This document shows positions 720-28,294 of a stretch of 44,039 nt of DNA, in pieces. Source of the DNA: Actinomycetota bacterium (GTDB lineage Bacteria > Actinomycetota > Acidimicrobiia > Acidimicrobiales > VFJN01). A program made the translations under genes and the position numbers. The DNA lies in contig JBKPHT010000012.1 in the NCBI GenBank assembly GCA_046730015.1, forward strand, positions 1-44,039, read 5' to 3'. The notes beneath the pieces were generated by a model. The model saw nothing but the letters and a program-made list of their open reading frames with translations. It had not been told where the DNA came from and made no database searches. The stretch's first letter is position 1. Each line of letters starts with the position of its first letter.

Positions 720-2060
720 TCACCCGGCCGCGAGCAGCACGACCGACGTCTGAGGGGCCAAGGTGATCGTGGCTGGCGCTGGCGTGCCATCGATGCGGGT
801 GTAGCCGGCAGGGACCGTGAATGTGGCGCTGCCGATGTCTGGCTCGCGGGTGACGACGATCCCGCCATCGAAGTCCCGGCGGATGAACCCAGCCCAGTCG
901 TAGCGGGCACCTAGCGCGTCACCGAGGTCGAGCTGGAACCCTGCCCAGAAGTTGTCGGGGTTGACGATCTGCCACATCTCGGAGCCGACCATGTCGTTGC
1001 CTTCGGTCACCAGCAGATAGGTCGCCAGGTTGTGTTCGGCCTCCGTCATCGTCGACCCGACGTCGTCGTTCACGATCACGTTCGTGCCTTGGGCGTGGAC
1101 CCGGTCTATGAACGCCAGGAGCGTGCGGTATCCGTATGCGCCACCGGCGTCGAGGCCACCATCGTTGCCACCGTGTTCGATCATGACCCAGTCCGCGGCG
1201 GCGATCTCGCGAGACACGAACGGGTCACCGAAGGCGGTTTGGTCGGCGTACCAGATCGTGTTGTGGACGATCTCGATGCCCGGGAACTCGGCCCGGATCG
1301 CCTCGGTGAACTCGGCGAAGTAGCGCTGCCAGTCCGCCAGCGTCAGCAGCTGACCAGTGTTGGGGTCGAGGATCCGTGACGTGCTCGTGGTGCCGTTCGA
1401 GAACCGGAACACGAGGTTGGTGTCGTCGAGGTAGATGCCGTGGTAGCCGAGATCGACCTTGGCTTGGATCCGGTCGAGGAACCACTGCCGATAGGCAGGG
1501 TTGGAGATGTCGGCGGCGTACTGCGGGCAGGTCCCGCCTGAGCAGCCCCAGTCGATGAACACCTGCCGGCCAGTGTCGAAGTCGGTGAGGATCCATTCGG
1601 GGTGCTGCGCGTATTGGGGCCACGCCGGCTTGATGGCGTAGGCGTCGGTGTATTCGACGGTCCGGTCGTACCAGGTGAGCCGCGAGTCGAAGTAGGGCGA
1701 GTCCACAAGCATCCGGTGGTAGTTGTCCCGCATGAACTGCTTCTGGGCATCGGTGGGGTTGCTGGTCCACGGGTCGAGCGCCGACTTCGGCGTGAAGAAC
1801 TTGACGTCACCCGCGCCCGGCTGGGTTGGTGGTGTCGTAGCGGTCCTGGTCGGCGCGGTCGTGGTCGGGGTCGGGATGGTCGTGGTCGTCACGGGAGTAG
1901 TGGTTGTCGTCGTCGGTGCCGTCGTCGTCGTGGTAGAGACAGTCGCGGTCGTGGTGGGTTTGCGGTGGCGGTGGCCGGGTTTGTGGTGGGCCGCGGCCGG
2001 GGCGATCGCCGCAAGAACCAACAGCGCCAACAGCGCCAGCAGGACACCGGATCGCCTCAT
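720..2060 (-). CDS. Secreted putative glycoside hydrolase (TIM-barrel, 'GHL15'-like) with Thr/Pro-rich linker
   Basis: ATG 2060 follows GGGGAGG; Sec signal (LLALLALLVLAAIAPAAA); Thr-rich linker; motifs HPEWIL, YAADISNP, GIYLDD, IEHG, FIRRDFDGGIV. Confidence 0.75.
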   Translation of the reverse strand: MRRSGVLLALLALLVLAAIAPAAAHHKPGHRHRKPTTTATVSTTTTTAPTTTTTTPVTTTTIPTPTTTAPTRTATTPPTQPGAGDVKFFTPKSALDPWTSNPTDAQKQFMRDNYHRMLVDSPYFDSRLTWYDRTVEYTDAYAIKPAWPQYAQHPEWILTDFDTGRQVFIDWGCSGGTCPQYAADISNPAYRQWFLDRIQAKVDLGYHGIYLDDTNLVFRFSNGTTSTSRILDPNTGQLLTLADWQRYFAEFTEAIRAEFPGIEIVHNTIWYADQTAFGDPFVSREIAAADWVMIEHGGNDGGLDAGGAYGYRTLLAFIDRVHAQGTNVIVNDDVGSTMTEAEHNLATYLLVTEGNDMVGSEMWQIVNPDNFWAGFQLDLGDALGARYDWAGFIRRDFDGGIVVTREPDIGSATFTVPAGYTRIDGTPAPATITLAPQTSVVLLAAG

Positions 2061-2129
2061 GATCGTCGACCTCCCCAGCCCCGCCAACGGCGGATGCTAC
2101 TTCACGGTTCGGTCGCCTGGACCAGGCAC

Positions 2130-8542: not shown

Positions 8543-9352
8543 TCATGACGATTCGGTGACGGATGTGCGCGGCGGCTTGCTGGGTCGGCAGATAAACAGG
8601 TGCTCATCGGTACGCAGCCCATATCGACGGCGGATGTCCTCGTCGATGCCCGTCGCCCAGTCGACCCTCACCTCGAACCCCGAGGATTCGAGACGGTTCC
8701 CGAGGTCGGGTCCGTACAGACGTACGTGACTGCGTTCACCAAACAGTCGCTCGCGTTCGACAGGATCGGTGATTGACGGATTCTCGTGAGTCGGCGCGTC
8801 CATGCGGAGCGGAACGCTGACGATGGCTACCCCGCCGGGCCCGAGCGACTGGCGCAACTCGCTCATCACACGCAGGTCGTCGTCGACGTGTTCGAGCACG
8901 TGAGTGCAGAGCGCGATGTCGAAGGATTCCGGCCGGACCGGGAGGAACCTGGCGTCGCCGACCACGTCGACGTGCCGGCCGTCCGATCGCAGGTCGATCC
9001 CCACGTGGGCGACGCCGGGGAGACGGCGCAGTCCCCTCGCGAGCGACGGCCAGGGCGCGACTTCGAGCAAACGAACGGACCCATCGCGGAGAAGCCCGTG
9101 CTCCTCAAGGTGTAGCCAGAGGCGACGGTGGCGAGCCTTGGCATTGCACCGCGGGCAGTAGCCGTCGCTGTTGCTGCGAACTGTGCCCCACCGACCGACG
9201 AAGCCACGCAACGACCACCCGCAGCAGGGGCACACATAGCGCCTTCCTGCGAAGACGACGCCGCGCACGAGCAGCACCATCGCCTTCAGGGCTGCACCAC
9301 GGTGTCCTCGCAGCCGCCCGGCCGCCCGGTGTGGCAACGAGGAGAGATTCAT
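8543..9352 (-). CDS. Class I SAM-dependent methyltransferase with N-terminal Cys cluster
   Basis: CPCC...CPRC...RHR, LLEVAP, FDIALCTHVLEHV, FGERSHVRLYG; ATGA overlap with the upstream gene at 9349-9352. Confidence 0.85.
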   Translation of the reverse strand: MNLSSLPHRAAGRLRGHRGAALKAMVLLVRGVVFAGRRYVCPCCGWSLRGFVGRWGTVRSNSDGYCPRCNAKARHRRLWLHLEEHGLLRDGSVRLLEVAPWPSLARGLRRLPGVAHVGIDLRSDGRHVDVVGDARFLPVRPESFDIALCTHVLEHVDDDLRVMSELRQSLGPGGVAIVSVPLRMDAPTHENPSITDPVERERLFGERSHVRLYGPDLGNRLESSGFEVRVDWATGIDEDIRRRYGLRTDEHLFICRPSKPPRTSVTESS

Positions 9353-10590
9353 GCCATGGGCCTCCGGCCCAGTTGCTTCAGTCGACGGATCGACGGGTGC
9401 CGCCGTATCAGCCGATCGTGGACTCGCAGATAGGTCATCCGCCCTCGACCCGCGATGTGGTGGCGAGCTGCCAACATCAGACGGCGGGGGCTCCCATGGG
9501 CCTGTCCGAACGCAGCGCCTCCTCGGCCGCGACGCGTGTCGACGAACGGAACGAGGGGATCTAGCGGTTCGACGATCGCATACCCGTGGTCGGACAGGAA
9601 GCGGTCGAGTACCGACCTGCCGAGGTCGACCGCATCGTCGTCGAGATCTTTGGAGCAGGACCGGTCGACGACCCTCGCCGCAGCGGACACGAGTTGATCG
9701 TCCCGGCCGGACTCGGGACGGCGATGGGTCAGACTCCGGTACAACTCGACAGCCCCTGCATTGCGTGAGTCCAGTTCGAAGATCCCTGTCGCGGCGAGCA
9801 CGCGGGACCGGAGACATTCGCTGGCCCAGCTCGGGTCGATGAAGCGATCCCCGACGAAGCGGATCCCGAGGCACAACGGCCGACCGCCGACGCGGACCGT
9901 GAACCCTCCGCCGACAGCGGCTGGCAGCCGGAAGGCAGACCGCGCTCCCAGAATGGTGTGCAGGCTGTGGTAGTCGTCGCAGAGGATTTGGACCCCGTGG
10001 GCGACGTTCGACCCCTCCGACGTCCCTGCCGAGTGCAGCCTCGGGAGTACGACGTAGTTGATGGTCTCGTTGAGCGTGCGGTACATGTCGAGCTCGGATT
10101 TCCAGCCGTCAGACCCGGTCACGTCCCGCGCTATCCGCTCTATCCCTCCGTCCCAGGTCGCACGCGGGCCGGCCGCGATCATGTCCGGCTCGCCCAGCAG
10201 CATCGTCAGGTCACGCCGGGTCTCGTGAGACGTCTCACCGCAGTGCACACCTAGCGCACCGCACCACTCGCGGTAGCGGAGCTTGGCGTCCAGAAAGTTT
10301 GCGTTCACCTCCCGGGGACCCCTGGAGGTCACCCTCACCTCGACAACCGGATCCGGATCCCACAGCACCACAGCGAGTAACGGCCCAGCACCCTTGTTGA
10401 GGACGTGGTAGACACCCCGCACTTGCAAGTCGGAGTAGAAGCGCTCGTAGTTCCTTTCGACTCGCCTGGGGGTCCATTCGACCTCCGTGACCGACACCAC
10501 CCCGAAACGCCGCTCGAGATCCGCCAGGATCTCCGACTGGTGACCACGTACCGCATCCCACAGCACGAAGAGGCCCGCGCCAGGATGCAT
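9349..10590 (-). CDS. Hypothetical protein with NDK-like N-terminal domain (alternative GTG start at 10632)
   Basis: Fills the gap between the ATP-grasp and methyltransferase genes with coupled ends; globular composition from MHPGAGLFVLW onward; see findings. Confidence 0.75.
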   Translation of the reverse strand: MHPGAGLFVLWDAVRGHQSEILADLERRFGVVSVTEVEWTPRRVERNYERFYSDLQVRGVYHVLNKGAGPLLAVVLWDPDPVVEVRVTSRGPREVNANFLDAKLRYREWCGALGVHCGETSHETRRDLTMLLGEPDMIAAGPRATWDGGIERIARDVTGSDGWKSELDMYRTLNETINYVVLPRLHSAGTSEGSNVAHGVQILCDDYHSLHTILGARSAFRLPAAVGGGFTVRVGGRPLCLGIRFVGDRFIDPSWASECLRSRVLAATGIFELDSRNAGAVELYRSLTHRRPESGRDDQLVSAAARVVDRSCSKDLDDDAVDLGRSVLDRFLSDHGYAIVEPLDPLVPFVDTRRGRGGAAFGQAHGSPRRLMLAARHHIAGRGRMTYLRVHDRLIRRHPSIRRLKQLGRRPMA

Positions 10591-10631
10591 GCCGCGCCCG
10601 TCGTGCCGACCATCTGAGAGACGAGCTGCCA

Positions 10632-11855
10632 CTACCGCGTCCCTGCCCTGCCCGATCGGAGCGACCGTTGCCCCACCTGCTTCGCCGCCTGCCACAGGTC
10701 GGCGAAGAACGGAGCCGGGTCGCGCCAAGAGAAGATGGCATGGGCTCTGCGCCCCCTGTACGAGCGCACCCACTCGCCGAGACCCAAGCGGTCTGACCGC
10801 CAGTAGGTGAACCCGGACTGGACGTCGTGGCGCAGGTCGACCCACTTCGTTCCGGTGTACCTCTGCGTCCGGTCGACGATCGGTGGGAGCGGCAGCTGCA
10901 GCACATCGCAGTACATTGTGTAAAGCAACTCCACTCCACCGGCCTCGGCGATGGCCGACCGGCCAGTCGGTCGACCGACATTTGGCTCGATGACGTAGTA
11001 CGCGCCTGACTCCTCGTCCTTCTTCAACTCCAGATATGCCAGACCGTGGTACGGCACGGTGGCGAAGAAGCCGAGCGTGCCTGCCAGTGTCGCGTCGTCC
11101 CTCACCTCCTCCCCAAGGCAACTCGAGCCGGCGTCGACCGGCCACTGACGGAGCTTTCGTGCGACGAACGTCGCCAGGGGTTCACCGTTACGGTCGAAGT
11201 AGCAGTTGCAGGAGTACAGGTTGGTGTCATCCCCGCGTATCCACTGCTGGGCGATGAACGCCGCAGACCACTCCCGGCAGGTCTCGTACGCCTGCAGGAG
11301 CTCTTCTCCGCTGGCGAGCATGAACACCTTGCACTTCGTATGGCTGTCCCAGGCCATGTCCCGGTACGAGGGCTTCAGCAGACAGGGAAACGTCAGCTCT
11401 CGGGCGGCGCGCTCCGCATCGCTCCAGGAGCGGATCACGATGGCCGGCGGAACCGGCACTCCGTGAGCCTCGGCGTGCTCGAGGAAGCGGATCTTGTCGA
11501 GAAAGGTCTCGACGACCTCGGGAGGCGGGAGCGCGTACTCGAAGAAGGGCTCCCGCTGCTCCCGATGGCGGGAGACCACGCGGACGCTCCTGTCCTGACA
11601 CGGGAACAGAGCCGCCCGTTCATCCAGCTCGGCCCCTAGCTCCAGCAACGTGTCGATGAGCTCGGGCGTCCCCGTCGGGGTGATCCGCAGATCGCGACAG
11701 ACGTTGGTCCGGCAGTTCGGGTGGGAGCGGTCCTCGGCGATGGCGACTACGGGGATCCCGTGTCCGTCCAGAATCCGTGCGGCCTGGATCCCCTGGAGAC
11801 TGTCGAGACCGATTACAACAGCCGGAGGAAGGATCCGTGAGGAGGGCCTTGGCAT
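10632..11855 (-). CDS. ATP-grasp carboxylate-amine ligase (D-aspartate-ligase-like)
   Basis: LFPCQD, DKIRF, FPCLLKP, QQWIRGDD, RKLRQWP, YLELKKD...IEPNVGR. Confidence 0.88.
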   Translation of the reverse strand: MPRPSSRILPPAVVIGLDSLQGIQAARILDGHGIPVVAIAEDRSHPNCRTNVCRDLRITPTGTPELIDTLLELGAELDERAALFPCQDRSVRVVSRHREQREPFFEYALPPPEVVETFLDKIRFLEHAEAHGVPVPPAIVIRSWSDAERAARELTFPCLLKPSYRDMAWDSHTKCKVFMLASGEELLQAYETCREWSAAFIAQQWIRGDDTNLYSCNCYFDRNGEPLATFVARKLRQWPVDAGSSCLGEEVRDDATLAGTLGFFATVPYHGLAYLELKKDEESGAYYVIEPNVGRPTGRSAIAEAGGVELLYTMYCDVLQLPLPPIVDRTQRYTGTKWVDLRHDVQSGFTYWRSDRLGLGEWVRSYRGRRAHAIFSWRDPAPFFADLWQAAKQVGQRSLRSGRAGTR

Positions 11856-12184
11856 GGCGGAACACTGTAGGTGGGCTCGCTCCCGCGGGTGTCCCCTATG
11901 GCACGTTGTCTGGAGGACGACCTCTGGGGCACGCGGTCCAGCGGTGGTCATCCGACGGACAGGCTGGGATCGATCCTGCGAGTCCCCGAATTGACTTCCC
12001 CCGGCGCGGGCGCTGGGCCTCCACGAGAGCTACCCTGCGCGACTGACTGATCGGTAGGACCAGCGGGTCGGTGAGCGGAAGGCGGGCGGCCTGACCGACG
12101 GTCACGGTCGCCGGACACACCGTTTCCTCGTCACCGGGTTGAGTGCGAACGAGCGGCACGCAGCGAGACCGGGAGGAATCCAAC

Positions 12185-13819
12185 GTGAGCAAGACCGAGC
12201 AGTTCCGACAGCTGTTGCACTCGGGGGAACTTGAGTTCCTCCTCGAGGCGCACAACGGTATGAGCGCCAAGATCGGTGAGGAGGCCGGGTTCAAGGGGCT
12301 CTGGGCCAGCGGGCTCTGCATCTCGGGACAACTGGCCGTCCGGGATTCGAACGAGGCGAGCTGGACGCAGGTCCTCGACGTGCTCGAGTTCATGACGGAC
12401 GCAACGAGCATCCCGATCCTTCTCGACGGCGACACCGGCTACGGGAACTTCAACTCGATGCGGCGTCTAGTCCGCAAGCTCGAGCAGCGGGACGTCGCCG
12501 CCGTTTGCATCGAGGACAAGCTCTTTCCGAAGACGAACAGCTTCATCGCCGGCGAGACGCAACCCCTCGCAGACATCGACGAGTTCTGCGGCAAGATCAA
12601 GGCTGGCAAGGACGCCCAGTCGGACCCCGACTTCGCCATCGTGGCCCGGGTCGAGGCGTTCATCGCAGGGTGGGGACTCGGCGAAGCCCTGACGCGGGCG
12701 CATGCCTACGCCGACGCGGGTGCCGACGCCATCCTCATGCACAGCGCCAAGTCAACTCCCGATGAGGTCCTCGCCTTCACGAGCGAGTGGCACCGCGAGT
12801 GTCCAGTGATCATCGTGCCGACTCGCTATTATTCGACCCCTTCCGATGTCTACAGGACTGCCGGGATCTCGGTGGTCATCTGGGCCAACCATCTCCTGCG
12901 GGCCGCGATCGGGGCGATGCAGCAGACCGCAGCGTCGATCAAGGCCGAGGAGAACCTGTTCTCGGTCGAGGACCAGGTCGTGCCCGTCGCAGAGATCTTC
13001 CGCCTCCAGGGTGCACCCGAGCTGGCCGAGGCCGAGAAGCGCTATCTCCCGAACCGGAACGCCGGCGTCCGGACCGTCGTCCTCGCCGCGTCACGGGGAG
13101 AAGAGCTCGGTGAGCTGACCAGCGACCGTCCGAAGGCGATGGTCGAGGTCAACGGACGCCCCCTGGCGCAGCACATCGTCGATGCCTTCAATGCGATCGG
13201 CGTGAAGAACATCACGCTGGTGCGCGGCTTCCGCAAGGATGCCTTCGACATCCCCAACCTCCACTACGTGGACAACGACGACTTCGAGCAAAGTGGCGAG
13301 CTCGCGTCGCTGCAGGTCGCCCTCGACGCCCTGCCCGCCGAGTCAGCCGACGCGACGTTGGTCGTGTGCTACGGCGACGTGCTGTTCAGCAAATTCGTGC
13401 CGCAGGCGTTGCTTGACCTCGAAGCGGACCTCGCGATCGCAGTGGACACGGACTGGCGCGTGAGCGCCAACCGTGACCGAGCCGCTGACCTCGTGCGGTG
13501 CTCGGCGCCCCACTCGCGTGACGCCTTCTACAAGCGGATCAACCTGGAGCGGATCTCCACAGAGCTCCCGGAGGAGGAGGTCCATGGCGAATGGATGGGA
13601 TTTCTGAAGATCGGCGCGGACGCCCGGCCCCTCGTACGAGAGCTCACCGCGGAGCTCCTCTCCGCCCCCGACGGGCGGCAGGCGGCTTTGCTGGATCTCC
13701 TCCAAAGCCTGGCGTCGTCACATCGTGCTGTCGAGGTGTTCTACACGACAGGTCATTGGCTCGATGTCGACAGACTCACCGATCTCGGTTCTGCCGGCAG
13801 CTTCGACGGACCGGGGTGA
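12185..13819 (+). CDS. pepM: Phosphoenolpyruvate mutase fused to a C-terminal nucleotidyl (cytidylyl) transferase
   Basis: Diagnostic EDKxxxxxNS motif ([10 protein letters not shown]), EAHNG, DSNEASW, DGDTGYG; C-domain LAASRG...RPKAM, YGDVLF, GEWMG, WLDVD; GTG 12185 follows GGGAGGA. Confidence 0.97.
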
Positions 13820-13825
13820 CATCAA

Positions 13826-15958
13826 ATGATTCGTGCGTCCGACTTCGTCGAGCAGGCTCGCGTGCGCGGCTTCTCCATCTACGCCGGCGTCCCGTGTTCC
13901 TTTCTCAAGCCGTTCATCAATTACGTGATCGACGACGATTCACTGCGATACGTCGCAGCGGCCCAGGAAGGGGACGCGGTTGCCATCGCCGCAGGCAGTG
14001 ACCTCGGTGGAGTGCCAGCGATCTGCATGTTCCAGAATTCAGGTCTCGGGAATGCGGTCAGCCCGCTGTCATCGCTGACAGCGACGTTCAGGATCCCGGT
14101 CCTCCTCATCGTCACGCACCGCGGCAGGCCGGGACCTGACACGGACGAGCCCCAGCATGAGCTGATGGGGCGCATCACCCGTGACATGCTCGAGTTGCTG
14201 GGGATCCCATCGGAGGACTTCCCCACCGATTCCGCCCAAGTGGCCCCCGCGCTCGACCGCGCGACCACCTGGATGCGGGAACACTCCTTGCCATATGCGC
14301 TCATCATGGCCAAGGGATCCGTCGAGCCGTGGAAGGAGCCACAACAGCCACCGGTGGGCATCCACCCAGAGTCCACAGTGCCCATATCCTCACCACCCGA
14401 GACCTCCCGGGGGGCGATGTTGGACGCACTGCAGGCCTCGCTCGACCCGAGCGACGTCGTGATCGCCACCACCGGCTACACGGGACGGGAGCTCTACGCC
14501 CACGGCGATGCGGCGAACCAGTTCTACATGGTGGGGTCGATGGGTTGTGCGTCGAGCCTGGCGCTCGGTGTCGCCATCACCCGACCGCAGAACCGTGTCA
14601 TCGCCGTCGACGGCGACGGTGCCGCGATCATGCGGCTAGGCGCCCTCACCACGCTTGCTGCCGAGCGGCCGGCCAACGTGGTGCACATCGTGCTCGACAA
14701 CGGTCAACATGAGTCGACGGGCGGACAGCCCACGTCGACGGCCACGACCGATCTCGCCGGCGTGGCCGCAGCGTGTGGCTACCGACATGTCCAACGGGCC
14801 ACGAGCCCTGAACGCCTGAGCGACCTGTTGCGCGAACGCCTCGACGGACCCCTGTTCATCCACGTACCGATTCATCCGGGTGTCACACAGAAGCTGCCGC
14901 GTCCGGCGATGACGCCCCCTGAGGTGGCGGCCCGGTTCCGTCGCCACCTCCACGACTACGCGACTCGCCACTCCTCCGACAACGAGGTGTCACTGGGCGG
15001 GCAACCACCCCGCCGCCGGATGAAGATCCTCGTGGTCACCAAGTTGTTCCCAGACGCGATGGAGCAGCTCCGCCACGACCACGATGTCGTTCAGCAGATC
15101 GACCCGTCGGCCGACGAGCTCTTGGAGCTGGTCGGCGACCGGGAGGTCCTCATCTTCCGCAGCGGTGTGCAGATCACCGCCGAGGTCCTGGGCAAGGCCC
15201 AGCACCTCGAGCTCCTGATCCGTGGAGGCTCGGGCCTCGACAACATCGATCTGGCTCATGCCGACCAGAACGGCATCGAGCTCGTCCGTATCCCACAACC
15301 GGGGGCTCGAGCCGTGGCCGAGCTCGCCTTTGCGCTGATGTTGAACCTGGCGCGGCGTGTTCTCGAGGCAGATTCGCTGCTACGCCAGGGACGCTGGGCG
15401 AAACACGACATCGTCGGGCGTCTCCTGGCCGACAAGACACTCGGAGTCTATGGGGCCGGCAACATCGGCGGTCAGATCGCTCAACTGGGCAGAGCCTGGG
15501 GAATGAAGGTGCTCGGCTGTGTGGAACACCCGACGGACACGCGAGCTCGCGAGCTTGCCGCGCGTGGTATCGAGCTCGTCAGCGACGCCGAGGTCCTCGC
15601 CCGCTCCGACTTCCTCACACTGAGCGTCCCGCTGAAGCCGTCGACCCGCCATCTCATCGACGCCGAGGCCATCGCAGCGATGAAGCCGGGTGCGTTCATC
15701 GTCAACGTGGCTCGCGGCGGGGTCGTCGATGAGGAAGCGCTGGCCGAGGCGCTCGACTCCGGTCATCTGGCAGGTGCGGCGCTCGACGTCCACGAACGCG
15801 AGGGCGAAGGCGCGGTCTCCCCCCTCGCAAGACGTCCCGACGTCGTGCTCACTCCCCACATCGGTGCCGGCACAGTCGATTCCCAGCGGATGATCGGGGA
15901 GCGCATCGTCGAGATCCTCCGGGAGCGCGCCACACGCCTTCCCGCGGCGGCGGGCTGA
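13826..15958 (+). CDS. ppd: Phosphonopyruvate decarboxylase fused to a D-isomer-specific 2-hydroxyacid dehydrogenase
   Basis: Ppd: GVPCSFLKP, QNSGLGN, DEPQH, FYMVGSMG, DGDGA...DNGQHESTGGQ. From codon 399 (ATG 15020): MKILV, GSGLDNID, AVAE, GAGNIG, NVARG, DVHERE, TPHIG. No stop between the two domains. Confidence 0.95.
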   Translation: MIRASDFVEQARVRGFSIYAGVPCSFLKPFINYVIDDDSLRYVAAAQEGDAVAIAAGSDLGGVPAICMFQNSGLGNAVSPLSSLTATFRIPVLLIVTHRGRPGPDTDEPQHELMGRITRDMLELLGIPSEDFPTDSAQVAPALDRATTWMREHSLPYALIMAKGSVEPWKEPQQPPVGIHPESTVPISSPPETSRGAMLDALQASLDPSDVVIATTGYTGRELYAHGDAANQFYMVGSMGCASSLALGVAITRPQNRVIAVDGDGAAIMRLGALTTLAAERPANVVHIVLDNGQHESTGGQPTSTATTDLAGVAAACGYRHVQRATSPERLSDLLRERLDGPLFIHVPIHPGVTQKLPRPAMTPPEVAARFRRHLHDYATRHSSDNEVSLGGQPPRRRMKILVVTKLFPDAMEQLRHDHDVVQQIDPSADELLELVGDREVLIFRSGVQITAEVLGKAQHLELLIRGGSGLDNIDLAHADQNGIELVRIPQPGARAVAELAFALMLNLARRVLEADSLLRQGRWAKHDIVGRLLADKTLGVYGAGNIGGQIAQLGRAWGMKVLGCVEHPTDTRARELAARGIELVSDAEVLARSDFLTLSVPLKPSTRHLIDAEAIAAMKPGAFIVNVARGGVVDEEALAEALDSGHLAGAALDVHEREGEGAVSPLARRPDVVLTPHIGAGTVDSQRMIGERIVEILRERATRLPAAAG

Positions 15959-15965: not shown

Positions 15966-17213
15966 TCAGGCCCCGACGACCGAGCGAATCGCCTTGAGTA
16001 CGCGCGCGCCGGACTGGTCGTCATCGAATGCGTGCAGCCTGGCCATCGCCGTGTCCCGCCGCGCACCGTCGTGAGACATCGCCCGGTCGGTGGCGATCTC
16101 GGTGAGCGCTCCGAACAGATCCACCGGGGTCGAGAGACAGGGCCCGACTGCGATGTCCTCCGGGTCGAAGACCAGCTTGCGGCTGCTCGCGCGGAACTCG
16201 GCGAGGTCAGGCATGTAGTAGATGATCGGCCGTTCCATCAACATGTAGTCGAAGATCACCGACGAGTAGTCGCTGATCAGTGCGCTGGTGAACGGCAGCA
16301 CGTGATAGACGTCGAGCTCCTGCGGCAGCAGGACGACTCTCGGCGACCGATGATCGAAGCTCGTCACATCCATCGGGTGGAACTTGATCAAGAAGACGCC
16401 GTCCACCTCCTCCATCAGTGCTTCGAGACGGTCCCAATCGATGTTGAGGTACGGCTTCGCGCTGTCGCGGAACGTCGGCAGGTAGAAGAACACAGCCGTG
16501 CCCGCATCCGCAGCCGCGAGCACCTCCGGTGGACACTTCGACCGTGCATGACGGTGACCCTCAGCCGACAGGAGCAGGTCGTTGCGCGGGAAACCAGTGA
16601 CCACGACCGCGGCCTCCGGAACGTCGAACGCCCGCCGCGTGATGGCTGCCGTCTCCTCAGATGTCGCGATGATCAGATTGGGACGGACAAGGTGCCAGGG
16701 CATCATCGCGCCGTACGCGAGTCTCACCGGCGGGACACCGTGGAACAACCGGTGATACCTGCTGGCCGGATTGTCGATGTCCCGCTCGAACGCCTTGAGC
16801 GGAACGCCGCTCCAGAGGTTCACCGTGATGGCGTTGCGCGACAGCCAGAAGTTGATGTCCTTCGAGAAGCAATCGAAGACGAAGACGCCGGCGCGCAAGC
16901 ACCGAAGCATCCCACGCACCGACCAGACCCAGTTCGCCGCGTATCCCTGACGCCGTAGGTCGTCCACGATGTCCCGCCGCCTTGAGATCCAGACCAGGTC
17001 GACTGCGTCGACGTCGACCCGGTAGCAGTACTGGAAGAAGGCAGCAGCGTTGTCGGCAAACCGATGGCCCCCCCACGAGCCGAACACCCACAAAGAGTTC
17101 CGGCGCGGGACAAGGCCGGACAGAAGGTACAGCGCGAACTGCGCAGGTCGGGCCACAGCGGTTCCGAGCAATGTACCGGCGCGGGTGAGCCGATCCCTCC
17201 ATCTACCGGTCAT
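15966..17213 (-). CDS. CDP-glycerol glycerophosphotransferase family protein (TagB/TagF-like)
   Basis: WVFGS, NLWSGVPLK, TGFPRND, YLPTFR, KFHP, ISDYSSVIFDY. Confidence 0.92.
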   Translation of the reverse strand: MTGRWRDRLTRAGTLLGTAVARPAQFALYLLSGLVPRRNSLWVFGSWGGHRFADNAAAFFQYCYRVDVDAVDLVWISRRRDIVDDLRRQGYAANWVWSVRGMLRCLRAGVFVFDCFSKDINFWLSRNAITVNLWSGVPLKAFERDIDNPASRYHRLFHGVPPVRLAYGAMMPWHLVRPNLIIATSEETAAITRRAFDVPEAAVVVTGFPRNDLLLSAEGHRHARSKCPPEVLAAADAGTAVFFYLPTFRDSAKPYLNIDWDRLEALMEEVDGVFLIKFHPMDVTSFDHRSPRVVLLPQELDVYHVLPFTSALISDYSSVIFDYMLMERPIIYYMPDLAEFRASSRKLVFDPEDIAVGPCLSTPVDLFGALTEIATDRAMSHDGARRDTAMARLHAFDDDQSGARVLKAIRSVVGA

Positions 17214-17246: not shown

Positions 17247-18044
17247 TTACCGACGTCCTTCCTTGGCGACGATGGCTGGGAACAGCTCGTTCCGGATGTA
17301 GGCATAGTCGTCGGCCGTGTCGCACTCGGCGTACGCGAGACCCGCAGGGACCTGAGCGGAGACCATGCGCCGCAATGTCAGGCAGTACTGCCACAGTTCC
17401 TCGTGCTCCGACTGCGACTTGGCGAATCCGTAGGCAGGGCTCTCGTCGGGCCATCCGGTGAGCCATCGCGCGATTCCCTGGACGAACTCCCGGTCCTCGG
17501 CGGCCACGTGGATGATGCCGAGGCTCTCTCCGAGAAGGTCGAGACCAGCCGTCAGTAGAGGAGACAACCCTTTACCGATCAGGACGGGGTGCTCGTGTCC
17601 GTGCCCGTAGACCCTCACTTCCTCGTCGTCGCCCGAGACCTGAGGAGCGAGGAACAGGCAGCTCCGGCCACACGACCCGATCACCGACTCCAGCAGCGTG
17701 CGCTCGTAGACGATGTCGGCGTCGGTGATCAGCAGTCCACCATCGTGACAAGCTGCGGCGCGAAGGCCGCAGAGCAGGCTCAACGTCGATCCGGTCGTCG
17801 ACGTGTCGAACGTGTTGACGACGAGCTCGACGCCCTCCAGATGCTGAGCGCTGTCGACATTCCCCTCACTCAGCACGACCAGCACCTCGTCGACGCCGCA
17901 GTTCCGAAGGATGCCGACGTGCCGCCCCAGAAAGGTCGGCCCACCCTCCTGGTGGGACAGCGGAAGGAGCGACTTCGGCACCGACGGCCGTCCGAGCCGC
18001 CGCCCGATCCCCGCAGCGAGGACGACAGCCGTCAGCCCGCCCAT
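17247..18044 (-). CDS. Stand-alone nucleotidyltransferase (LicC/PntC-like cytidylyltransferase)
   Basis: VLAAGIGRRLG..PKSL, DADIVY, DDEEVRV, GESLG, ECDTADD. Confidence 0.88.
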   Translation of the reverse strand: MGGLTAVVLAAGIGRRLGRPSVPKSLLPLSHQEGGPTFLGRHVGILRNCGVDEVLVVLSEGNVDSAQHLEGVELVVNTFDTSTTGSTLSLLCGLRAAACHDGGLLITDADIVYERTLLESVIGSCGRSCLFLAPQVSGDDEEVRVYGHGHEHPVLIGKGLSPLLTAGLDLLGESLGIIHVAAEDREFVQGIARWLTGWPDESPAYGFAKSQSEHEELWQYCLTLRRMVSAQVPAGLAYAECDTADDYAYIRNELFPAIVAKEGRR

Positions 18045-18057: not shown

Positions 18058-19203
18058 TCACGTCCTGAAGCCCATTTCTTCCCGCACGGCTGCGATCTCG
18101 GTCATGAGGCGATCGATGTCGGACGGGAAGATGTTGCCGATCGAACCGATGCGGAACGTCGAGAGCTCGGAGACCTTCCCTGGGTAGATCATGAAACCGC
18201 GGTCCTTGAGAAGATCGAAGAACATCTGGAAGGAGAATCTCTCGTCCCCGGGATAGTGAAACGAGGTGATGATCGGTGACTGCAGCTCCGCTGGGAGCAG
18301 GGTTCGGAAGCCGAGCCGCTCCATACCTCTGACGATCGCCTGCTGGTTCTCACAGTACCGCTGGTGACGACCTGCCAATGTCTCCACGGCGAGTTCTTCG
18401 AGCGCCTGGTCGAATCCCAGAACCGCATGAGTCGGCGAGGTGAAGCGCCACTTGCCGTGGCCTTCCTCGAGGCCACGCCACTGATCGCCGAGATCAAGGC
18501 TCAAGGAGCGGGCGCAGCCCTCGGTCTTCTCCAACGTCGCCCGGTGGGCGATGACGAACGCGAAACCGGGCACACCCTGGAGGCACTTGTTGGCCGACGA
18601 CACGGCGTAGTGGGCACCGAATGTGACCATGTCGAAGGGGATGCCCCCGAACGACGACATGGCGTCGACGACGAGGCACTTCCCGTGGGCCGCGACGAGC
18701 TCGCCGATCGACGCGGCATCGTTCACGATGCCCGTCGTCGTCTCGCAGTGGACGTACCCGACGTGGCTGATGGACGGGTCAACGGTGAGCGCTGCGTCGA
18801 TCCGGTCGGGATCGATGCGCTCGGTCTCGGGGTGACTCAGCACCACGCAAGAGATCCCCAGCCGCTCCGCGATCGCCGCCATCCGTACACCGTAAGCGCC
18901 ATTTGCCGCGATCAGAATCCTTCCATCGGACGGGATCACGGAGCCGAGGGTGGACTCGATGGCAAACGTGCCGCTCCCCTGCATCAGCACCGAGGTGTAG
19001 TCCGGCCGACACCGGTGATCCGACACTGCGATGTCGACCAACCGGGAGCGGATCGACTCGCAGATCGCGATGTAGTCAGGATCCCACGTCGACAGCTCGC
19101 GCAACGTCGCGGATCGAACGGTCCGCGTGGTCGAGAGTGGCCCCGGGGTCAACAGTAGATAGGGGTTTTCCTCGCCGCGCATAGTGGCGGGTGACTTTAG
19201 CAT
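18058..19203 (-). CDS. phnW: 2-aminoethylphosphonate aminotransferase (AepZ/PhnW family; alternative start 19182)
   Basis: LLTPGP, QGSGTF, NGAYG, HCETTTG, DAMSSFG, SSANKCLQG (PLP lysine), RFTSPTH, IYPGK. Confidence 0.95.
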   Translation of the reverse strand: MLKSPATMRGEENPYLLLTPGPLSTTRTVRSATLRELSTWDPDYIAICESIRSRLVDIAVSDHRCRPDYTSVLMQGSGTFAIESTLGSVIPSDGRILIAANGAYGVRMAAIAERLGISCVVLSHPETERIDPDRIDAALTVDPSISHVGYVHCETTTGIVNDAASIGELVAAHGKCLVVDAMSSFGGIPFDMVTFGAHYAVSSANKCLQGVPGFAFVIAHRATLEKTEGCARSLSLDLGDQWRGLEEGHGKWRFTSPTHAVLGFDQALEELAVETLAGRHQRYCENQQAIVRGMERLGFRTLLPAELQSPIITSFHYPGDERFSFQMFFDLLKDRGFMIYPGKVSELSTFRIGSIGNIFPSDIDRLMTEIAAVREEMGFRT

Positions 19204-19216
19204 GGGTCTCGCTCTA

Positions 19217-20581
19217 TCAACCGGAACGGCAGGGGTGCCGGTGGGGCCCGCCCCCCCGGGTCCCAGTCCTGGTTGCCGCTGTGGTCGTCGGTGCCGATGT
19301 CGCGTCAGGATGTGTGAGCACGATCGCTTCACGGTCGCCGAGCGTGACCGAGGTGACGCGCTGTCCCGATGGCGTCCGCATCGGCGCATCGAGCCGGATC
19401 GTGACCCGGTCCCCGCCGGGTTCGTTCAGGAGAACGATGCCCTCGGTGAAGTCGCGGCGAATGAGGTTCTCGTCAACGTAGCGGGGGCCCAGCGCACGCC
19501 CCAGGTTCGTGGTGAAGCCGCTCCAGAAGCCAGGGGGGCTGATGAGGTCCCAGTCCTCGGTGCTGACGAGATCGTGGCCGTTACTCGCGAGCAGGCCTGC
19601 AGCGAGATTGAACCACTGTTCCTTGATCGTGGAGGCCGTTTCGTCCAGCAGCAGCACGTTGGCTCCGAGCGCATGCACGCTGTCGATGTAATCGAGGAAC
19701 GTCCGCATTCCAAATCTGCTCGTGCCCTTGACGAGTCCCGGATCTGTGGCACCGCGCTCAAGCATCAAGTAGTCAGCGGCGGCAATCTGCCGCGACAGGT
19801 AAGGGTTGTCGTTCTGAGGAGGCTCGGCGTACCAGATGACGTTGTGCATGATCTTCAGATCAGGAAATGCTGATCTGATCATCTCGACGAACTCTGCCAT
19901 GTAGCGCTGCCAGTCCTCGAGGGTTAGACCGGCACCGGTTCGCGGGTCGATCGGCGCGATGTCGTCTCCCTTTTGGTCGCTGAAACGCCAGTCGAGGTTC
20001 ACGTCGTCCAGCATCAAGCCCGGATATCCGCGTCGCACGAGCGTGGCGATGTCGTCGAGCATCGCCTGCCGGAATTCCGGGTTGCCGACATCAGCGGCGT
20101 ATTGTGGACAGCGGTTCGTGCAGCCGAACGGTATGTAGACGGGGTCACCGTCTGCGTCTCTCAGGATCCACTCGGGGTGCTTGATGGACCTGGTGTCCTG
20201 CGAGGTGTTGACCTTGATGGAATAGGCATTCCGCGAAACAAACACGCGGTTGAAATCGTCGAGACGCGAGTCCCAGTAGGGCTCCCACACCACCATGCTG
20301 TCGTAGGTCTTGTTCATCCAGGACCAATAGCGCCCTGCGGTCCATTGATCGAATTCGGACTTGGCGTTGACCAGAACACCCATGCGGCCCTCGTCGTCGC
20401 TTTCACCGAGAGTCGTCGCGCCGGCGCCTGGGCTGTCCGACCCGACGGTCGACGGATCAGCGTGATCGACCCCGACATGGCCGGCGGTGCCCTCTTCCGG
20501 CTCGGCTCGGCCCGATCCGCAGGCTGTCAGTCCGAGTACCGCGAGGAGAAGACCCGTTAGGGTCGGTCGAACTGTCCGCAC
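19217..20581 (-). CDS. Putative glycoside hydrolase lipoprotein, paralogue of 720-2060
   Basis: Lipobox-like LLLAVLGLTA-C; shared motifs HPEWIL, GC...CPQYAAD, LDD.NL, DWQRY.AEF, HN.IWYA, IRRDF..GIV; start approximate. Confidence 0.75.
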   Translation of the reverse strand: MRTVRPTLTGLLLAVLGLTACGSGRAEPEEGTAGHVGVDHADPSTVGSDSPGAGATTLGESDDEGRMGVLVNAKSEFDQWTAGRYWSWMNKTYDSMVVWEPYWDSRLDDFNRVFVSRNAYSIKVNTSQDTRSIKHPEWILRDADGDPVYIPFGCTNRCPQYAADVGNPEFRQAMLDDIATLVRRGYPGLMLDDVNLDWRFSDQKGDDIAPIDPRTGAGLTLEDWQRYMAEFVEMIRSAFPDLKIMHNVIWYAEPPQNDNPYLSRQIAAADYLMLERGATDPGLVKGTSRFGMRTFLDYIDSVHALGANVLLLDETASTIKEQWFNLAAGLLASNGHDLVSTEDWDLISPPGFWSGFTTNLGRALGPRYVDENLIRRDFTEGIVLLNEPGGDRVTIRLDAPMRTPSGQRVTSVTLGDREAIVLTHPDATSAPTTTAATRTGTRGGGPHRHPCRSG

Positions 20582-20722
20582 AGCAGAAGTCTGGCGGTTG
20601 GATCGGGTAGTGTCGTGGGCATTGCACCGTGGCGCAAGGTGGCTGAACACGCCACAACCAGTACGGCGTTGCCGCCTGTCCGAGGAGAGATCGATGTTGT
20701 CGTCACCGACTCTACACCTAGC

Positions 20723-21251
20723 TGTTCCTCTCATAGAGGTTGGTGACGCGGTAGGGGTCCACCAACGCGAAGACCTCCGGTTGTAGGTGTGCAGGTGTCC
20801 AAGCCAGCACCTCCCAGAGGTCCTCGTGAGCCACCGTAACGACCCGCTGACCCCGCAGGGACGACTGCTGTTGTGTCGCCGGATCGAGGCCGGCACCCCG
20901 ATTGCGCATGTGGCCGCAGCGGTGGGGATCTCGCGCCGTGCGCGTCGAAGTGGTGGCATCGTTACCTCGAGCTGGGCACGCACGGTGTCTGTGACCGCTC
21001 CAGTCGCCCGCGGCGCTCGCCCCGGCGGGGTCGCCGAGCGGGTCGAGGCCAAGATCTGCTGGCATCGCCGGGTTGAGAAGGTCGGCCCGGACCGTTTGGC
21101 GATCCATCTCGACCTGCCGGCCTCGACGATCTACCGGGTCTTGGTCCGCCACGACCTCAACCGGCTCTCCCACATGGACCGCCCCACCGCGGCGCCGATC
21201 CGCCGCTACGAACCGTCCCGGCCCGGCGAACTGGTCCATGTCGACATGAAG
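20723..21251 (+). mobile_element. IS481-family element, frameshifted and 3'-truncated
   Basis: Left end TGTTCCTCTCATAGAGGTTGGTGAC; transposase from GTG 20826 (SHRN.PLTPQGR); CASKWWHRY...DRSSRP lies in another frame; ends at RYE..RPGELVHVDMK, so most of the DDE domain is missing. Confidence 0.9.
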
Positions 21252-23175: not shown

Positions 23176-24069
23176 CTACGAGTCCCGGCGGGCCTTGGGG
23201 GCCGCCGTCCGTACCGCGTCACCGGGTTCTGCACTCTGGGCTGCCGGCGCTGACCGACCGCCGCGAGCCCGGCCTTCTCTTTCTGCCCAATAGCGCGACC
23301 ATCGCCGCTTGAATGACTCCACGTATCGCCGGATCCCCCGTGGTCTCAGCTGTATGACTTTGGGAACCAGTCCGGCGCAGCGCATTTTGTGAATGGTCGC
23401 TTGGTGATCATAGGGCAACTCCCGGTACGCAATCGTCTGACGCTCTGCGTCGAACACGGCGTAGCGAGCCAGCGGTTTTCCGTCGCGCGACTGCCCGACG
23501 GCTCCTGGGTTCACGACATGGGCTATGCCCGGGGTCAACGGCAGCTCGGTCGTTGAACGAACCAGCGAGAAGCCCCGTTCGCGGGAATAGACCGCGGCGT
23601 GATGGGTGTGCCCACACACAAGCATCATGGCACGCGGCCAGCGCTCCTCCAGCTGTCGCAGCGCGCTTTCGGCCCTGACCGTATCGCTGACGTAGGTATC
23701 GGCATTGTCGAGATTGCCGTGACAGACAACGACATGGGGAGTCGCCTCCAGCCATGGAGGCAGCGAGTCAAGGAATGCCCTCGCCCCGGGAGACAGGTTC
23801 TGCCTCGTCCACAGCGCCGCGGTGATCCCGGAATGGACACATCGGGAGAAATCCCGTCGACCGAGGACCATCTCGTCGTGGTTGCCCATGACGCACGGCA
23901 CACCAATCGACCGCAGTCGGTCGATGCACGCCTCCGGATCGGGACCGTAGCCCACGACATCTCCAGCGCACACGATCCTCGCGTCCGGGCTGCGCTCGTC
24001 GATGTCTGCGATCACGGCTTCCAGCGCCTCGAGGTTACCGTGGACGTCCGCGATCAGTGCGAGTCTCAC
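23176..24069 (-). CDS. Calcineurin-like metallophosphoesterase
   Basis: DVHGN, GDVVGYG, GNHD, HG, GHTH, NPGAVGQSRD; GTGA overlap with the upstream ATP-grasp gene. Confidence 0.92.
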   Translation of the reverse strand: MRLALIADVHGNLEALEAVIADIDERSPDARIVCAGDVVGYGPDPEACIDRLRSIGVPCVMGNHDEMVLGRRDFSRCVHSGITAALWTRQNLSPGARAFLDSLPPWLEATPHVVVCHGNLDNADTYVSDTVRAESALRQLEERWPRAMMLVCGHTHHAAVYSRERGFSLVRSTTELPLTPGIAHVVNPGAVGQSRDGKPLARYAVFDAERQTIAYRELPYDHQATIHKMRCAGLVPKVIQLRPRGIRRYVESFKRRWSRYWAEREGRARGGRSAPAAQSAEPGDAVRTAAPKARRDS

Positions 24070-25283
24070 GGGAGGTCAACCACCATCCGACGGTCCTTGG
24101 GGAACATCCTCGTGAGCAGTCGGGTCACGTCCGCAATCATCGGCATGGGATCGCTGATCTGGAAGCCTTCGTTGACGTCGACCGTCAACATCTCGAACAC
24201 CCATCGGGCTCGCGAGAGTTGCCCGGACGCGTGGTACTCACCAAATGCCCTGGCATCGGACATCGGAGCCATCCAGCGGACCCCCTTCTTCGCGGACTTC
24301 ATCGGCTCGACCGTTTCCGGTTCGACACAGTCCCAGAACACTGCCTCCGGGATGCCGACGCCGGCCACGGTCGCTGGATGGTGCCAGAGGTTGAACCGGG
24401 GATTGATCTCGAGCATGTACAGCCGGTTGTCACGTCTGTCCCGCTTGAAGTCGATCTTGAGGACCCCCGAGAAACCGAGGTTCGCGACCGTCGCTCTTCC
24501 GAGGTCTCGGACTTCCCGGTCGTCCGTGATCTCGACATAGGTGGACCTGCCGTAGACCTTCGGCGCGGTGCGGATCTTGCGCCCCGTGAACTCGGCGACG
24601 ATCTCGCCGCTCGGGCGCACGTAGGCGTGGTAGCTGAGAATGTTCTCCTCGCCGCCCTCCACGGATGCTTGGATCAGGAAGCGCGCATTCGAGGCCTCGA
24701 TCTTCGGCAAAAGGCCTTCGAGCTCGCCTCGCGTCTCGATGTGCAGGGCTTTCTGATACCTGCCGATGAACTCGTACCAGTTCTCGGCGCGCCTCGCGGG
24801 CTTGCACACACAGGGGAAGCGGTCCCACTGTTGCAGGGCCTTCGATGCGCCGGCGCCGAGGGGGACGGCCAAGGTATCCGGAACGAGCAGATCGTGCCTC
24901 CTGGCCAGCGCGAAGAACCGCACCTTGTCGGTGAGATCCTCCACCAGCTCGGCGCTGGGCAGCACGAAGCGAAAATGAGGAGCCAGTCTCTCCCGGGCGC
25001 GGGAGATAGCCACCAGGTCGTGATCGCCCTGATAGAAGAGCACGGGAAGCGAGGCTTGCTGCCTGGCCCACTCGATGATCGCCGTCACCGCAGCTTCTGG
25101 TTCACGGAACCAGCTCGGCGTCTTCACCACGATCCGGCAATACCGGGATCGGAGGCACTTCGCGTCGCCATCGCTGGTCGCCACGGCCACGGGCAGCTTC
25201 CGGATCCCCAATGCGCGCACCAGGCTGATGTCGCCGACGACGCAGGCATAGGGAGCTGTGCGAGCGCGAGATCGACTGTTCAT
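24066..25283 (-). CDS. Second ATP-grasp carboxylate-amine ligase
   Basis: SRYC, DKVRF, FPCVCKP, RKIRTAP..YGRST, KIDFKRD, LEINPRF; start at MNSRSR chosen over the low-complexity 5' extension. Confidence 0.88.
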   Translation of the reverse strand: MNSRSRARTAPYACVVGDISLVRALGIRKLPVAVATSDGDAKCLRSRYCRIVVKTPSWFREPEAAVTAIIEWARQQASLPVLFYQGDHDLVAISRARERLAPHFRFVLPSAELVEDLTDKVRFFALARRHDLLVPDTLAVPLGAGASKALQQWDRFPCVCKPARRAENWYEFIGRYQKALHIETRGELEGLLPKIEASNARFLIQASVEGGEENILSYHAYVRPSGEIVAEFTGRKIRTAPKVYGRSTYVEITDDREVRDLGRATVANLGFSGVLKIDFKRDRRDNRLYMLEINPRFNLWHHPATVAGVGIPEAVFWDCVEPETVEPMKSAKKGVRWMAPMSDARAFGEYHASGQLSRARWVFEMLTVDVNEGFQISDPMPMIADVTRLLTRMFPKDRRMVVDLP

Positions 25284-25733
25284 GGCCGTTCCGGGGTGAG
25301 GCAGGGTACCGGGGTTGGCTGGCAGCCCAGCGATTGCCGCCTGCGTGCCGGGCGAGATGGAAGTGTAGAGCGCAGGTTCAAGGGGTCGTCGCAACAGGCC
25401 GGACCCGTCGTTGCGCGTGCTGTTGACCGTCGTGGACACGGGCCGGGCGACCAGCAGCTCGGCCGGGGCGGGCACCAGCAGCTTGCCGAGCGGCTCAGCG
25501 TCGTCGTTGCAGCTCGTTTGGCGACATACCGGCAACAACTACTGGTCAGGATCATGGGCCGGTCCACCCCGGGGCACCGTGGTGCTCGAATCGAAGACGT
25601 GCGAGTGAGTTGCTTACATGCGGCTTGAGGAGCCGCCGGGTCTGTCGCCGATGACGACTGTGGGCCGGTTCGTCGGGCAGCACCCACGAAACTCTGACCC
25701 CTCCCGACCGACTTCCCCAACAGCCGCGGCGCC

Positions 25734-26298: not shown

Positions 26299-26345
26299 TC
26301 AGCACCGCGACTCAAGGGGCGCCTTTGATCCTCTTTCAGCCCTGT

Positions 26346-26369
26346 TTCAGGCATAGCTAAAGTTTAGAG
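26346..26369 (+). promoter_or_regulatory. Probable leaderless promoter with ArsR operator
   Basis: Palindrome CTAAA-G-TTTAG (26357-26367) overlaps a TAnnnT -10 box (TAAAGT) just upstream of the ATG; no SD. Confidence 0.5.
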
Positions 26370-27846: not shown

Positions 27847-27867
27847 CCAACCTTGGAGGTGTCGATC

Positions 27868-28227: not shown

Positions 28228-28240
28228 CCGCTCCGGTCCT

Positions 28241-28263: not shown

Positions 28264-28294
28264 CGGGGGACGGCGAACGGCTACGGTTCGTGCC

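Follow-up and report, generated by a model that had tools for sequence, protein, structure and literature searches.

The reaction of phosphoenolpyruvate mutase (PepM) is unfavourable and needs a second enzyme to pull it forward, and it is the identity of this enzyme that decides which phosphonate is made. Decarboxylation and reduction of phosphonopyruvate (PnPy) have been viewed as early branch points that are alternatives to one another (PMC8942020; this and the other papers given by PMC accession are cited from excerpts). In the valinophos pathway of Streptomyces durhamensis, the PF02826 protein VlpB pulls the mutase by reducing PnPy to phosphonolactate without a phosphonopyruvate decarboxylase, Ppd (PMC8942020, PMC11867202); it has been termed 'PnPy reductase' and employed in an NADH-coupled assay (PMC11867202). 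The 2-hydroxyacid dehydrogenases are counted among the PepM-driving enzymes (PMC12871164), those linked to PepM have already been catalogued by Pfam domain (PMC8942020), and in 2012 a gene resembling phosphoglycerate dehydrogenase (PGDH) in the PepM operon of Pelobacter carbinolicus, which lacks Ppd, was guessed to reduce PnPy (PMC3543383). The fusions named in two of these papers join PepM to a nucleotidyltransferase or to Ppd (PMC8942020, PMC6697681). As for phosphonolactate itself, Li and Horsman (2022) state that its only isolation to date was from spent medium of a single Streptomyces. Here we describe a gene in which a Ppd domain is followed, on the same polypeptide, by a PGDH-like D-2-hydroxyacid dehydrogenase domain. 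It lies in a stretch of 44,039 nucleotides from a soil bacterium of the Actinomycetota (contig JBKPHT010000012.1), the whole of which is referred to as the window.

Both activities are of known kinds; the fusion of Ppd to a dehydrogenase itself was not found described in the literature searched, although one may be listed among the clusters tabulated in the supplements to PMC8942020 and PMC6697681, which lay outside that search. Our reading, which we hold to be probable without regarding it as settled, is that the dehydrogenase half reduces PnPy to phosphonolactate in the manner of VlpB, while Ppd and a 2-aminoethylphosphonate (AEP) transaminase make AEP. The protein would then be a branch point within an exopolysaccharide cluster.

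Architecture and integrity of the fused gene

The open reading frame (ORF) at 13826..15958 on the forward strand starts with ATG, encodes 710 amino acids and has zero internal stops, as judged by ORF calling and translation. Four Pfam domains are recognized, TPP_enzyme_N (residues 14-112), TPP_enzyme_C (234-347), 2-Hacid_dh (401-696) and 2-Hacid_dh_C (502-680), making up a Ppd domain, a linker and a dehydrogenase domain, in this order. The Ppd domain, which depends on thiamine diphosphate (ThDP), occupies 13868..14950 on the forward strand (residues 15-375) and matches model positions 1-360 of the NCBIfam model TIGR03297 with 408.5 bits, where the cut-off is 312.5; a search of the genome gave 411 bits at the same place. 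The ThDP-binding motif has the form GDG...N; in the protein of the window, both PF02776 and PF02775 are present, and 14 fusions of the same architecture share E48 and the ThDP-binding stretch D262-G-D264-G ... D291-N292 without exception. Moreover, this half is encoded alongside a true PEP mutase, which ends 6 nt upstream of the fused gene. On these sequence grounds the N-terminal half is an intact, equivalog-level Ppd, and decarboxylation of PnPy is predicted for it. It is reminiscent of canonical Ppd, Fom2 and AepY in that a TIGR03297 equivalog follows PepM with a PhnW transaminase nearby.

The dehydrogenase domain, the proposed PnPy reductase, runs from Met399 to Gly710 (15020..15955, forward strand) and matches PF00389 and PF02826 with E-values of 2.3e-19 and 1.8e-56, respectively. 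The motifs GAGNIG (543-548), NVARG (627-631), DVHERE (654-659) and TPHIG (676-680) are invariant across the 14 aligned fusions. A first-pass annotation, made by a model from the letters alone, had described a 710-amino-acid frame with a complete Ppd, a linker and a full dehydrogenase bearing a GxGxxG motif and the latter three motifs, and this description is borne out by Pfam and TIGR03297. It had also pointed to the same architecture in other genomes and to the reads across 14950-15030 as places to look, and the protein clusters and run contigs examined with this in mind both favour the fusion. Among the best 120 matches of a protein search, all four domains are joined in the same way in 16 protein clusters (709-724 amino acids, 58-100% identity, the window's own cluster included), the remainder being 103 ordinary Ppds (390-442 amino acids, 51-63% identity) and one fragment of 442 amino acids.

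When the 14 fusions are aligned, conservation is good in both halves, while columns ~380-425 vary in length and sequence. The linker (14954..15019, forward strand, residues ~377-398) belongs to this variable part, which ends at the conserved RRMKILVVT, the Met of which is residue 399 (ATG at 15020). An AlphaFold2 model derived from these 14 proteins is of middling quality, with a mean predicted local distance difference test score (pLDDT) of 69.3 and a predicted template modelling score of 0.43; residues 379-395 are coil with pLDDT < 50, and the model served only to show this disordered linker. No Shine-Dalgarno-like GGAGG was seen by eye just 5' of the ATG at 15020. In a Planctomycetota metagenome-assembled genome (locus L002), Ppd and dehydrogenase are two genes, 64% and 60% identical to the respective halves of the window's protein, with the Ppd stop and the dehydrogenase start overlapping in ATGA; Met399 matches the start codon of the separate dehydrogenase gene. 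Because of this overlapping gene pair, Met399 can be regarded as an old start codon, the fusion having probably arisen by read-through into a translationally coupled downstream gene. The sequences fit a single fusion event, out of a separate, translationally coupled Ppd-dehydrogenase pair. There is a mere hint of a second split pair in a 395-amino-acid Ppd (P0019) and a 310-amino-acid dehydrogenase (P0126), each of which is encoded on a contig of 3701 nt, with the same two sources for both.

The fusion is real and is no assembly error. Of the public runs, 14 each contain half or more of the words sampled from 14400-15600, and in every one of the four whose contigs were aligned the linker is crossed: X10 (14400-15600), X3 (14706-15600), X2 (14855-15042) and X16 (14733-15105). 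Over the linker these contigs show substitutions only, with zero inserted or deleted letters. The check was made on assembled contigs, which drop rare variants, and not on raw reads; X16 is an RNA-library run with possible DNA carry-over, and hence no claim about expression is derived from its contig. Five other RNA runs contain small shares of the sampled words, which are not taken as evidence.

The dehydrogenase family and its genomic context

The best solved relatives of the dehydrogenase domain are PGDHs, with 1wwk aligning over the whole domain at an E-value of 9e-65. The PGDH model TIGR01327, when applied to the C-terminal half, gives 267 bits against a cut-off of 454 and matches only positions 1-299 of 525, and regulatory domains are therefore absent. 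In a search with the dehydrogenase domain, 119 of the 120 best matches are stand-alone proteins (304-346 amino acids, 56-67% identity, all E <= 1.3e-106), many of which carry the automatic name phosphoglycerate dehydrogenase. Two further architectures of the family occur as a single cluster each, from one short contig: P0242 (640 amino acids), in which the dehydrogenase (3-303) is fused directly to PEP mutase (353-600), and P0241 (747 amino acids), in which it is preceded by an N-terminal region of ~415 amino acids without Pfam match but with a Walker-A-like GGKT stretch.

In a quick IQ-TREE analysis of dehydrogenase domains (57 rows, branch support by the Shimodaira-Hasegawa-like approximate likelihood ratio test, SH-aLRT, only), 48 rows form a clade with a support of 100 on a branch of length 1.48. 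This clade unites the fused domains and the split L002 gene with every stand-alone protein sampled and every gene of verified context; outside of it are a SerA-like gene from the host genome and eight other 2-hydroxyacid dehydrogenases. The 14 fused domains are one clade (SH-aLRT 97), with stand-alone proteins and L002 as nearest neighbours. The SerA-like gene is a separate one, located on contig C377, with an open frame of 548 amino acids that is 43% identical to the dehydrogenase domain.

All 48 members of the family have G543/G545/G548, R445, K526, R630, E659 and H678 in common. R488 and H656, in place of Asn and Phe in PGDHs, are specific for the family and equally present in 48/48. At position 566 the family has Val or Ile, where the SerA-like protein of the host genome has Asp. 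Asp at that position selects NAD. The substitution suggests, by rules of this kind, that NADP(H) is perhaps accepted by the family. As regards the substrate, one Arg of PGDHs holds the carboxylate, while another Arg and an Arg/Lys of the other subunit hold the phosphate (PMC6300728); in E. coli PGDH a Lys is found two residues past a conserved Trp, W139/K141 (PMC8081924). In the family, R630, R445 and K526 occupy these cationic positions, and K526 is likewise two residues past the conserved Trp. By these residues, the domain seems suited to a 2-oxo acid with a distal phosphate or phosphonate. Between the fused dehydrogenases (n=14) and those from verified loci without Ppd (n=8), ~313 columns contain one fixed difference, T405 versus S, at which the split L002 protein goes with the Ppd-less group, and there is no difference at the active-site positions checked. 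This comparison argues for an unchanged reaction in the fused copy.

Fifteen loci of the family were examined: the window, two from species genomes, nine metagenomic ones, with one and the same dehydrogenase sequence in L090 and L091, and three cut from whole genomes. PepM adjoins the dehydrogenase gene in all of them. Ppd is encoded in six, fused in five and split in L002, while in the other nine no match to Ppd is found even at E <= 1e-3, and no AEP transaminase (AEPT) either. The dehydrogenases of these nine loci are 54-62% identical to the domain of the window. Their gene order is dehydrogenase, a PepM of 300 amino acids without nucleotidyltransferase domain and, usually, an ATP-grasp-like gene, and frequent neighbours encode a thymidylate-kinase-like P-loop protein, polysaccharide deacetylase or cell-wall glycan functions. 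The thymidylate-kinase-like gene was noted near the dehydrogenase in L091, L094, G047 and G764. Further genes of the operon in L090 and L091 encode, in turn, proteins with DUF4956 and a VTC domain and a large one with CotH-kinase and beta-helix parts; in L094, ORFs that are alike by size alone come after the dehydrogenase, PepM and ATP-grasp genes.

In the three whole genomes no Ppd is present anywhere, the best TIGR03297 scores being 31.5 bits in G047 (99% complete, 2 contigs), 27.9 bits in G160 (98% complete, 1 contig) and 35.1 bits in G764 (without stated completeness), against the cut-off of 312.5; such scores are at the level of unrelated ThDP enzymes. Furthermore, no other known PepM-coupling enzyme emerged from a Pfam scan of 19 neighbour genes in L090, L091, L092 and L109. 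In the absence of Ppd and of another coupling enzyme there, the dehydrogenase is the only visible candidate to consume PnPy in the Ppd-less loci. The ATP-grasp-like gene accompanies the family with and without Ppd (11/15 loci), and its retention in five of the six Ppd-containing loci suggests that the dehydrogenase product is still used in these.

The PepM of the window is 62-71% identical to the PepMs of dehydrogenase-linked loci, as against 32-42% to those of eight further PepM loci from within its phylum, and, to judge from these identities, PepMs of this type travel together with the dehydrogenase family. The eight derive from a sample of 401 genomes with 11 other PepM loci, of which G047 and G160 were handled separately and G001, flagged as unpublished, was left out; none of the eight (0/8) has a 2-hydroxyacid dehydrogenase as a neighbour. 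In G001, PepM resides in an open frame of 556 amino acids, the length class of the PepM-nucleotidyltransferase fusion of the window, and no conclusion is drawn from this genome. A 401-genome sample of the phylum of L002 contains, beyond L002's own genome, one more genome with the family, G764, which has no Ppd. The window also differs from ordinary Ppd loci: just one of 78 has any 2-hydroxyacid dehydrogenase homologue within ~10 kb (33% identity, different family), and the ATP-grasp-like partner is found at none of the 78.

A proposed branch point and its rivals

From the observed architecture, conservation, catalytic residues, family membership and gene context we infer what each half acts on, with which cofactor, and what becomes of the products, as follows. 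PepM, encoded 6 nt upstream, would make PnPy, the shared substrate of both halves. The N-terminal ThDP half would convert it to phosphonoacetaldehyde, from which the PhnW-type transaminase would make AEP, and the C-terminal PGDH-like half would reduce it with NAD(P)H to phosphonolactate. Both reactions would pull the unfavourable mutase step forward, the fusion would set the ratio of active sites at 1:1, and two phosphonates would be supplied to exopolysaccharide tailoring. The cluster of the window would be a merger of a phosphonolactate module (dehydrogenase, PepM, ATP-grasp proteins and methyltransferase) with an AEP module (Ppd, PhnW, nucleotidyltransferases and TagF-like transferase), and an ATP-grasp protein could couple phosphonolactate to an amine, for example, AEP or an amino sugar. 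Reduction of PnPy by the fused dehydrogenase is favoured because its orthologues adjoin PepM without Ppd, three of them in Ppd-free genomes, and share its active-site residues. As with VlpB, an enzyme of the D-2-hydroxyacid dehydrogenase family is encoded with PepM, and the stand-alone orthologues share VlpB's Ppd-free PepM context. Unlike VlpB, the dehydrogenase of the window is fused to Ppd, has Ppd at its own locus and belongs to a polysaccharide rather than a small-molecule cluster. VlpB was used with NADH (PMC11867202), whereas the family has Val or Ile at the position of the SerA-like Asp. A further difference from valinophos is seen in the 19 scanned neighbours in L090, L091, L092 and L109, among which Pfam revealed no glycolysis-like enzymes. 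The later steps of valinophos, up to dihydroxypropylphosphonate, use enzymes of this type.

A number of points weigh against this branch-point reading. What is known of the family's function comes from sequence and gene context alone, VlpB is likened to it by description and context and not by sequence, and no user of phosphonolactate is shown here. Of the nine loci without Ppd, six come from metagenome contigs 1.3-9.7 kb in length, and the genomes behind them could encode a Ppd at another place. The quick tree puts the verified Ppd-less dehydrogenases and the Ppd-linked ones (fused and L002) in different subgroups (SH-aLRT 90 and 89), and because of this separation a functional change between them is possible; the closest stand-alone proteins, P0122-P0128, lie outside the set with context read. 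Moreover, the retained Arg, Lys and Arg would also suit 3-phosphohydroxypyruvate. Finally, fusions usually join consecutive and not competing steps, which favours a reading with sequential domains.

In such a sequence, the main rival to our reading, Ppd would form phosphonoacetaldehyde, the fused dehydrogenase would reduce it to 2-hydroxyethylphosphonate (HEP) in place of the iron-type alcohol dehydrogenase (Fe-ADH), a nucleotidyltransferase would make cytidine monophosphate (CMP)-activated HEP, and a TagF-like protein would transfer it. The first-pass annotation had left the choice between a split of PnPy into phosphonolactate and phosphonoacetaldehyde/AEP and a new phosphonoacetaldehyde reductase; the former gains from the Ppd-less, PepM-linked orthologues, and the latter is the less likely, something we would not expect but do take seriously. 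Fusions do commonly join successive steps. A scan of 17 gene products from the 720-25538 part of the window gave no Fe-ADH domain, nor is there one in the fused protein, and the tree does set the Ppd-linked dehydrogenases apart as a subgroup. Fom1 is a precedent for a CMP-HEP-making cytidylyltransferase fused to PepM (PMC6697681), and an HEP-decorated exopolysaccharide is known in an actinomycete (PMC8942020). PhpC and FomC, the phosphonoacetaldehyde reductases, would be functional analogues, performing an NAD(P)H step right after Ppd; they are, however, of an unrelated fold (Fe-ADH, PF00465, PMC8942020). Against a reduction of phosphonoacetaldehyde stand the 54-62% identical orthologues with PepM in Ppd-less loci, three of which are in Ppd-free genomes where PnPy cannot yield this aldehyde, and the finding that the one column that splits fused from Ppd-less dehydrogenases lies outside the checked active-site positions, on which the required change of function would thus have left no trace. 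The PhnW transaminase of the cluster already uses phosphonoacetaldehyde, and the carboxylate-binding Arg of PGDHs is kept, yet this aldehyde has no carboxylate. Another PGDH-like enzyme of phosphonate metabolism is PhpE, the hydroxymethylphosphonate dehydrogenase of the phosphinothricin pathway, whose cluster includes an HEP dioxygenase and an Fe-ADH; the latter sets that cluster apart from the scanned window products.

It could also be imagined that the dehydrogenase acts on some other 2-oxo or 2-hydroxy acid: 3-phosphoglycerate/phosphohydroxypyruvate, as SerA does, the pyruvate released by AEPT, a later glycan intermediate or, in the oxidative direction, phosphonolactate, with the resulting PnPy feeding Ppd. 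This we regard as distinctly improbable. In its favour, the best solved relatives of the dehydrogenase are PGDHs, the automatic names of stand-alone relatives are D-3-phosphoglycerate dehydrogenase, and with short type III SerA (1wwk) the domain shares the fold family, the Arg-Glu-His catalytic set and the three cationic positions that bind phosphate and carboxylate. It is unlike SerA in scoring 267 bits against the PGDH cut-off of 454, in its distinct clade, parted by a long, fully supported branch from the SerA-like gene that the genome has in addition (43% identical, 548-amino-acid frame), in R488, H656 and V566 (V/I in the family) for Asn, Phe and Asp, and in its PepM linkage in 15/15 loci. 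Pyruvate released by AEPT fails as a substrate for the nine loci with neither Ppd nor AEPT. Plain SerA activity, which the first-pass annotation had named as a possible refutation, was rejected on the model score, the separate clade and the separate SerA-like gene on C377. That the fusion is an artefact, with assembly having shifted the frame or removed a stop, or that one half is a dead remnant, is so improbable that it hardly enters the choice. The window does come from an assembly of 465 contigs, and the two genes are separate in the related L002 genome; but contigs of four runs cross the linker without indels, the 16 fused clusters keep both halves and invariant catalytic residues down to 58% identity, and the fused dehydrogenases are one clade (SH-aLRT 97). 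An assembly frameshift was rejected on these grounds. Nor are homologues always separate, which the first-pass annotation had considered would speak against the fusion, even though L002 and 119 of the 120 best dehydrogenase matches are.

The exopolysaccharide cluster around the fusion

The gene immediately upstream (12143..13819, forward strand), ending 6 nt before the fused gene, encodes a fusion of PEP mutase (PF13714, residues 21-266) and a MobA-like nucleotidyltransferase (PF12804, 312-433). With TIGR02320 (cut-off 319.55) its PepM part reaches 385.3 bits, and the EDKxxxxxNS motif is present in the translation. Diverging from it on the reverse strand is an ATP-grasp-like protein resembling carboxylate-amine ligases (10632..11951), with weak ATP-grasp matches; atlas neighbours named ATP-dependent carboligase or carboxylate-amine ligase are a lead only. 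A second ATP-grasp protein (24066..25538, reverse strand; ATPgrasp_Ter, E-value 5.3e-6) is a distant paralogue of the first and matches the same places at 25-28% identity. The divergent upstream genes further comprise a conserved ORF of 598 amino acids without Pfam match (9349..11145, reverse strand), a methyltransferase dependent on S-adenosylmethionine (8543..9874, reverse strand, methyltransferase Pfam matches at 291-402), which has homologues beside the dehydrogenase in L002, L087-L089 and G160, and a priming glycosylphosphotransferase fused to a glycosyltransferase family 4 (GT4) domain; a Wzy-like and a Wzz/kinase-like protein follow further out. The 598-amino-acid ORF has 41% identity over ~600 amino acids in L002 and 82-86% in L087 and L088. 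Since it overlaps both the ATP-grasp and the methyltransferase ORF by ~500 nt, the starts of the latter two have probably been called too long.

Convergent with the fused gene lies that of a TagF/TarF-like protein of the glycerophosphotransferase family (15966..17213, reverse strand; PF04464, E-value 1.9e-52), which scores 85 bits on the TarF model, far under its cut-off, and is kept beside the fusion in L087, L088 and L089. It is followed, on the same strand, by a second nucleotidyltransferase (17247..18044; NTP_transf_3, PF12804, E-value 3.8e-17), which comes near the Sden_1164 family (NF038362, 281.3 bits against a cut-off of 300), and by the AEP:pyruvate transaminase PhnW (18058..19389; TIGR02326, 481.5 bits against a cut-off of 400.8). 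The usual pairing of Ppd with an AEP transaminase, mentioned in the first-pass annotation, holds here too, and AEPT is present in all four fused loci that have downstream flank. The AEPT ORF counts 443 amino acids, but TIGR02326 covers residues 74-434 and the alignment with homologous loci begins near residue 36-70; the called start probably lies upstream of the real one. Two hypothetical glycosyl hydrolase family 15 (GHL15) proteins (720..2087 and 19217..21052, both reverse strand) flank the cluster, and they may, together with a calcineurin-like phosphoesterase (23176..24069), trim or remodel the polymer. As a whole, the gene content identifies the locus as an exopolysaccharide cluster with phosphonate tailoring.

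The cluster fills the first ~26 kb of the window, where the G+C content is low (~0.65 in 1-26000); after a step near 26 kb it rises to ~0.74 (26000-44039), and this remaining part contains unrelated genes for a DUF2461 protein, ankyrin repeats, an EamA transporter and a histidine kinase. Five genes of the cluster are syntenic in L002, from another phylum, at 41-70% identity. The step and the synteny suggest that the cluster has moved from one phylum to another; a chimeric contig is the other possibility.

It is tempting to speculate about the polymer, and what follows has, as a whole, only a slim chance of being right. The surface polymer may carry both phosphonates, phosphonolactate and AEP, in a fixed proportion; the two may be joined by ATP-grasp to N-(phosphonolactoyl)-AEP or a like unit, one phosphonate being CMP-activated by a nucleotidyltransferase and attached or polymerized by the TagF-like protein, resulting in a phosphonate analogue of teichoic acid. 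The stand-alone family, with its dehydrogenase, PepM and ATP-grasp genes, would, by the same speculation, mark a widespread, Ppd-independent route to phosphonolactate-decorated envelopes in several phyla.

If the branch-point reading is true, the presence of both PnPy branches on one polypeptide would be a rare fusion of domains competing for one substrate, and it would predict a product, or a product pair, for which AEP and phosphonolactate are needed together. The dehydrogenase half belongs to a large, uncharacterized family, automatically named phosphoglycerate dehydrogenase, that is often found in cell-wall polysaccharide clusters without a decarboxylase. If the members of this family are PnPy reductases, phosphonolactate-derived surface decorations could be far commoner than the single known natural-product case.

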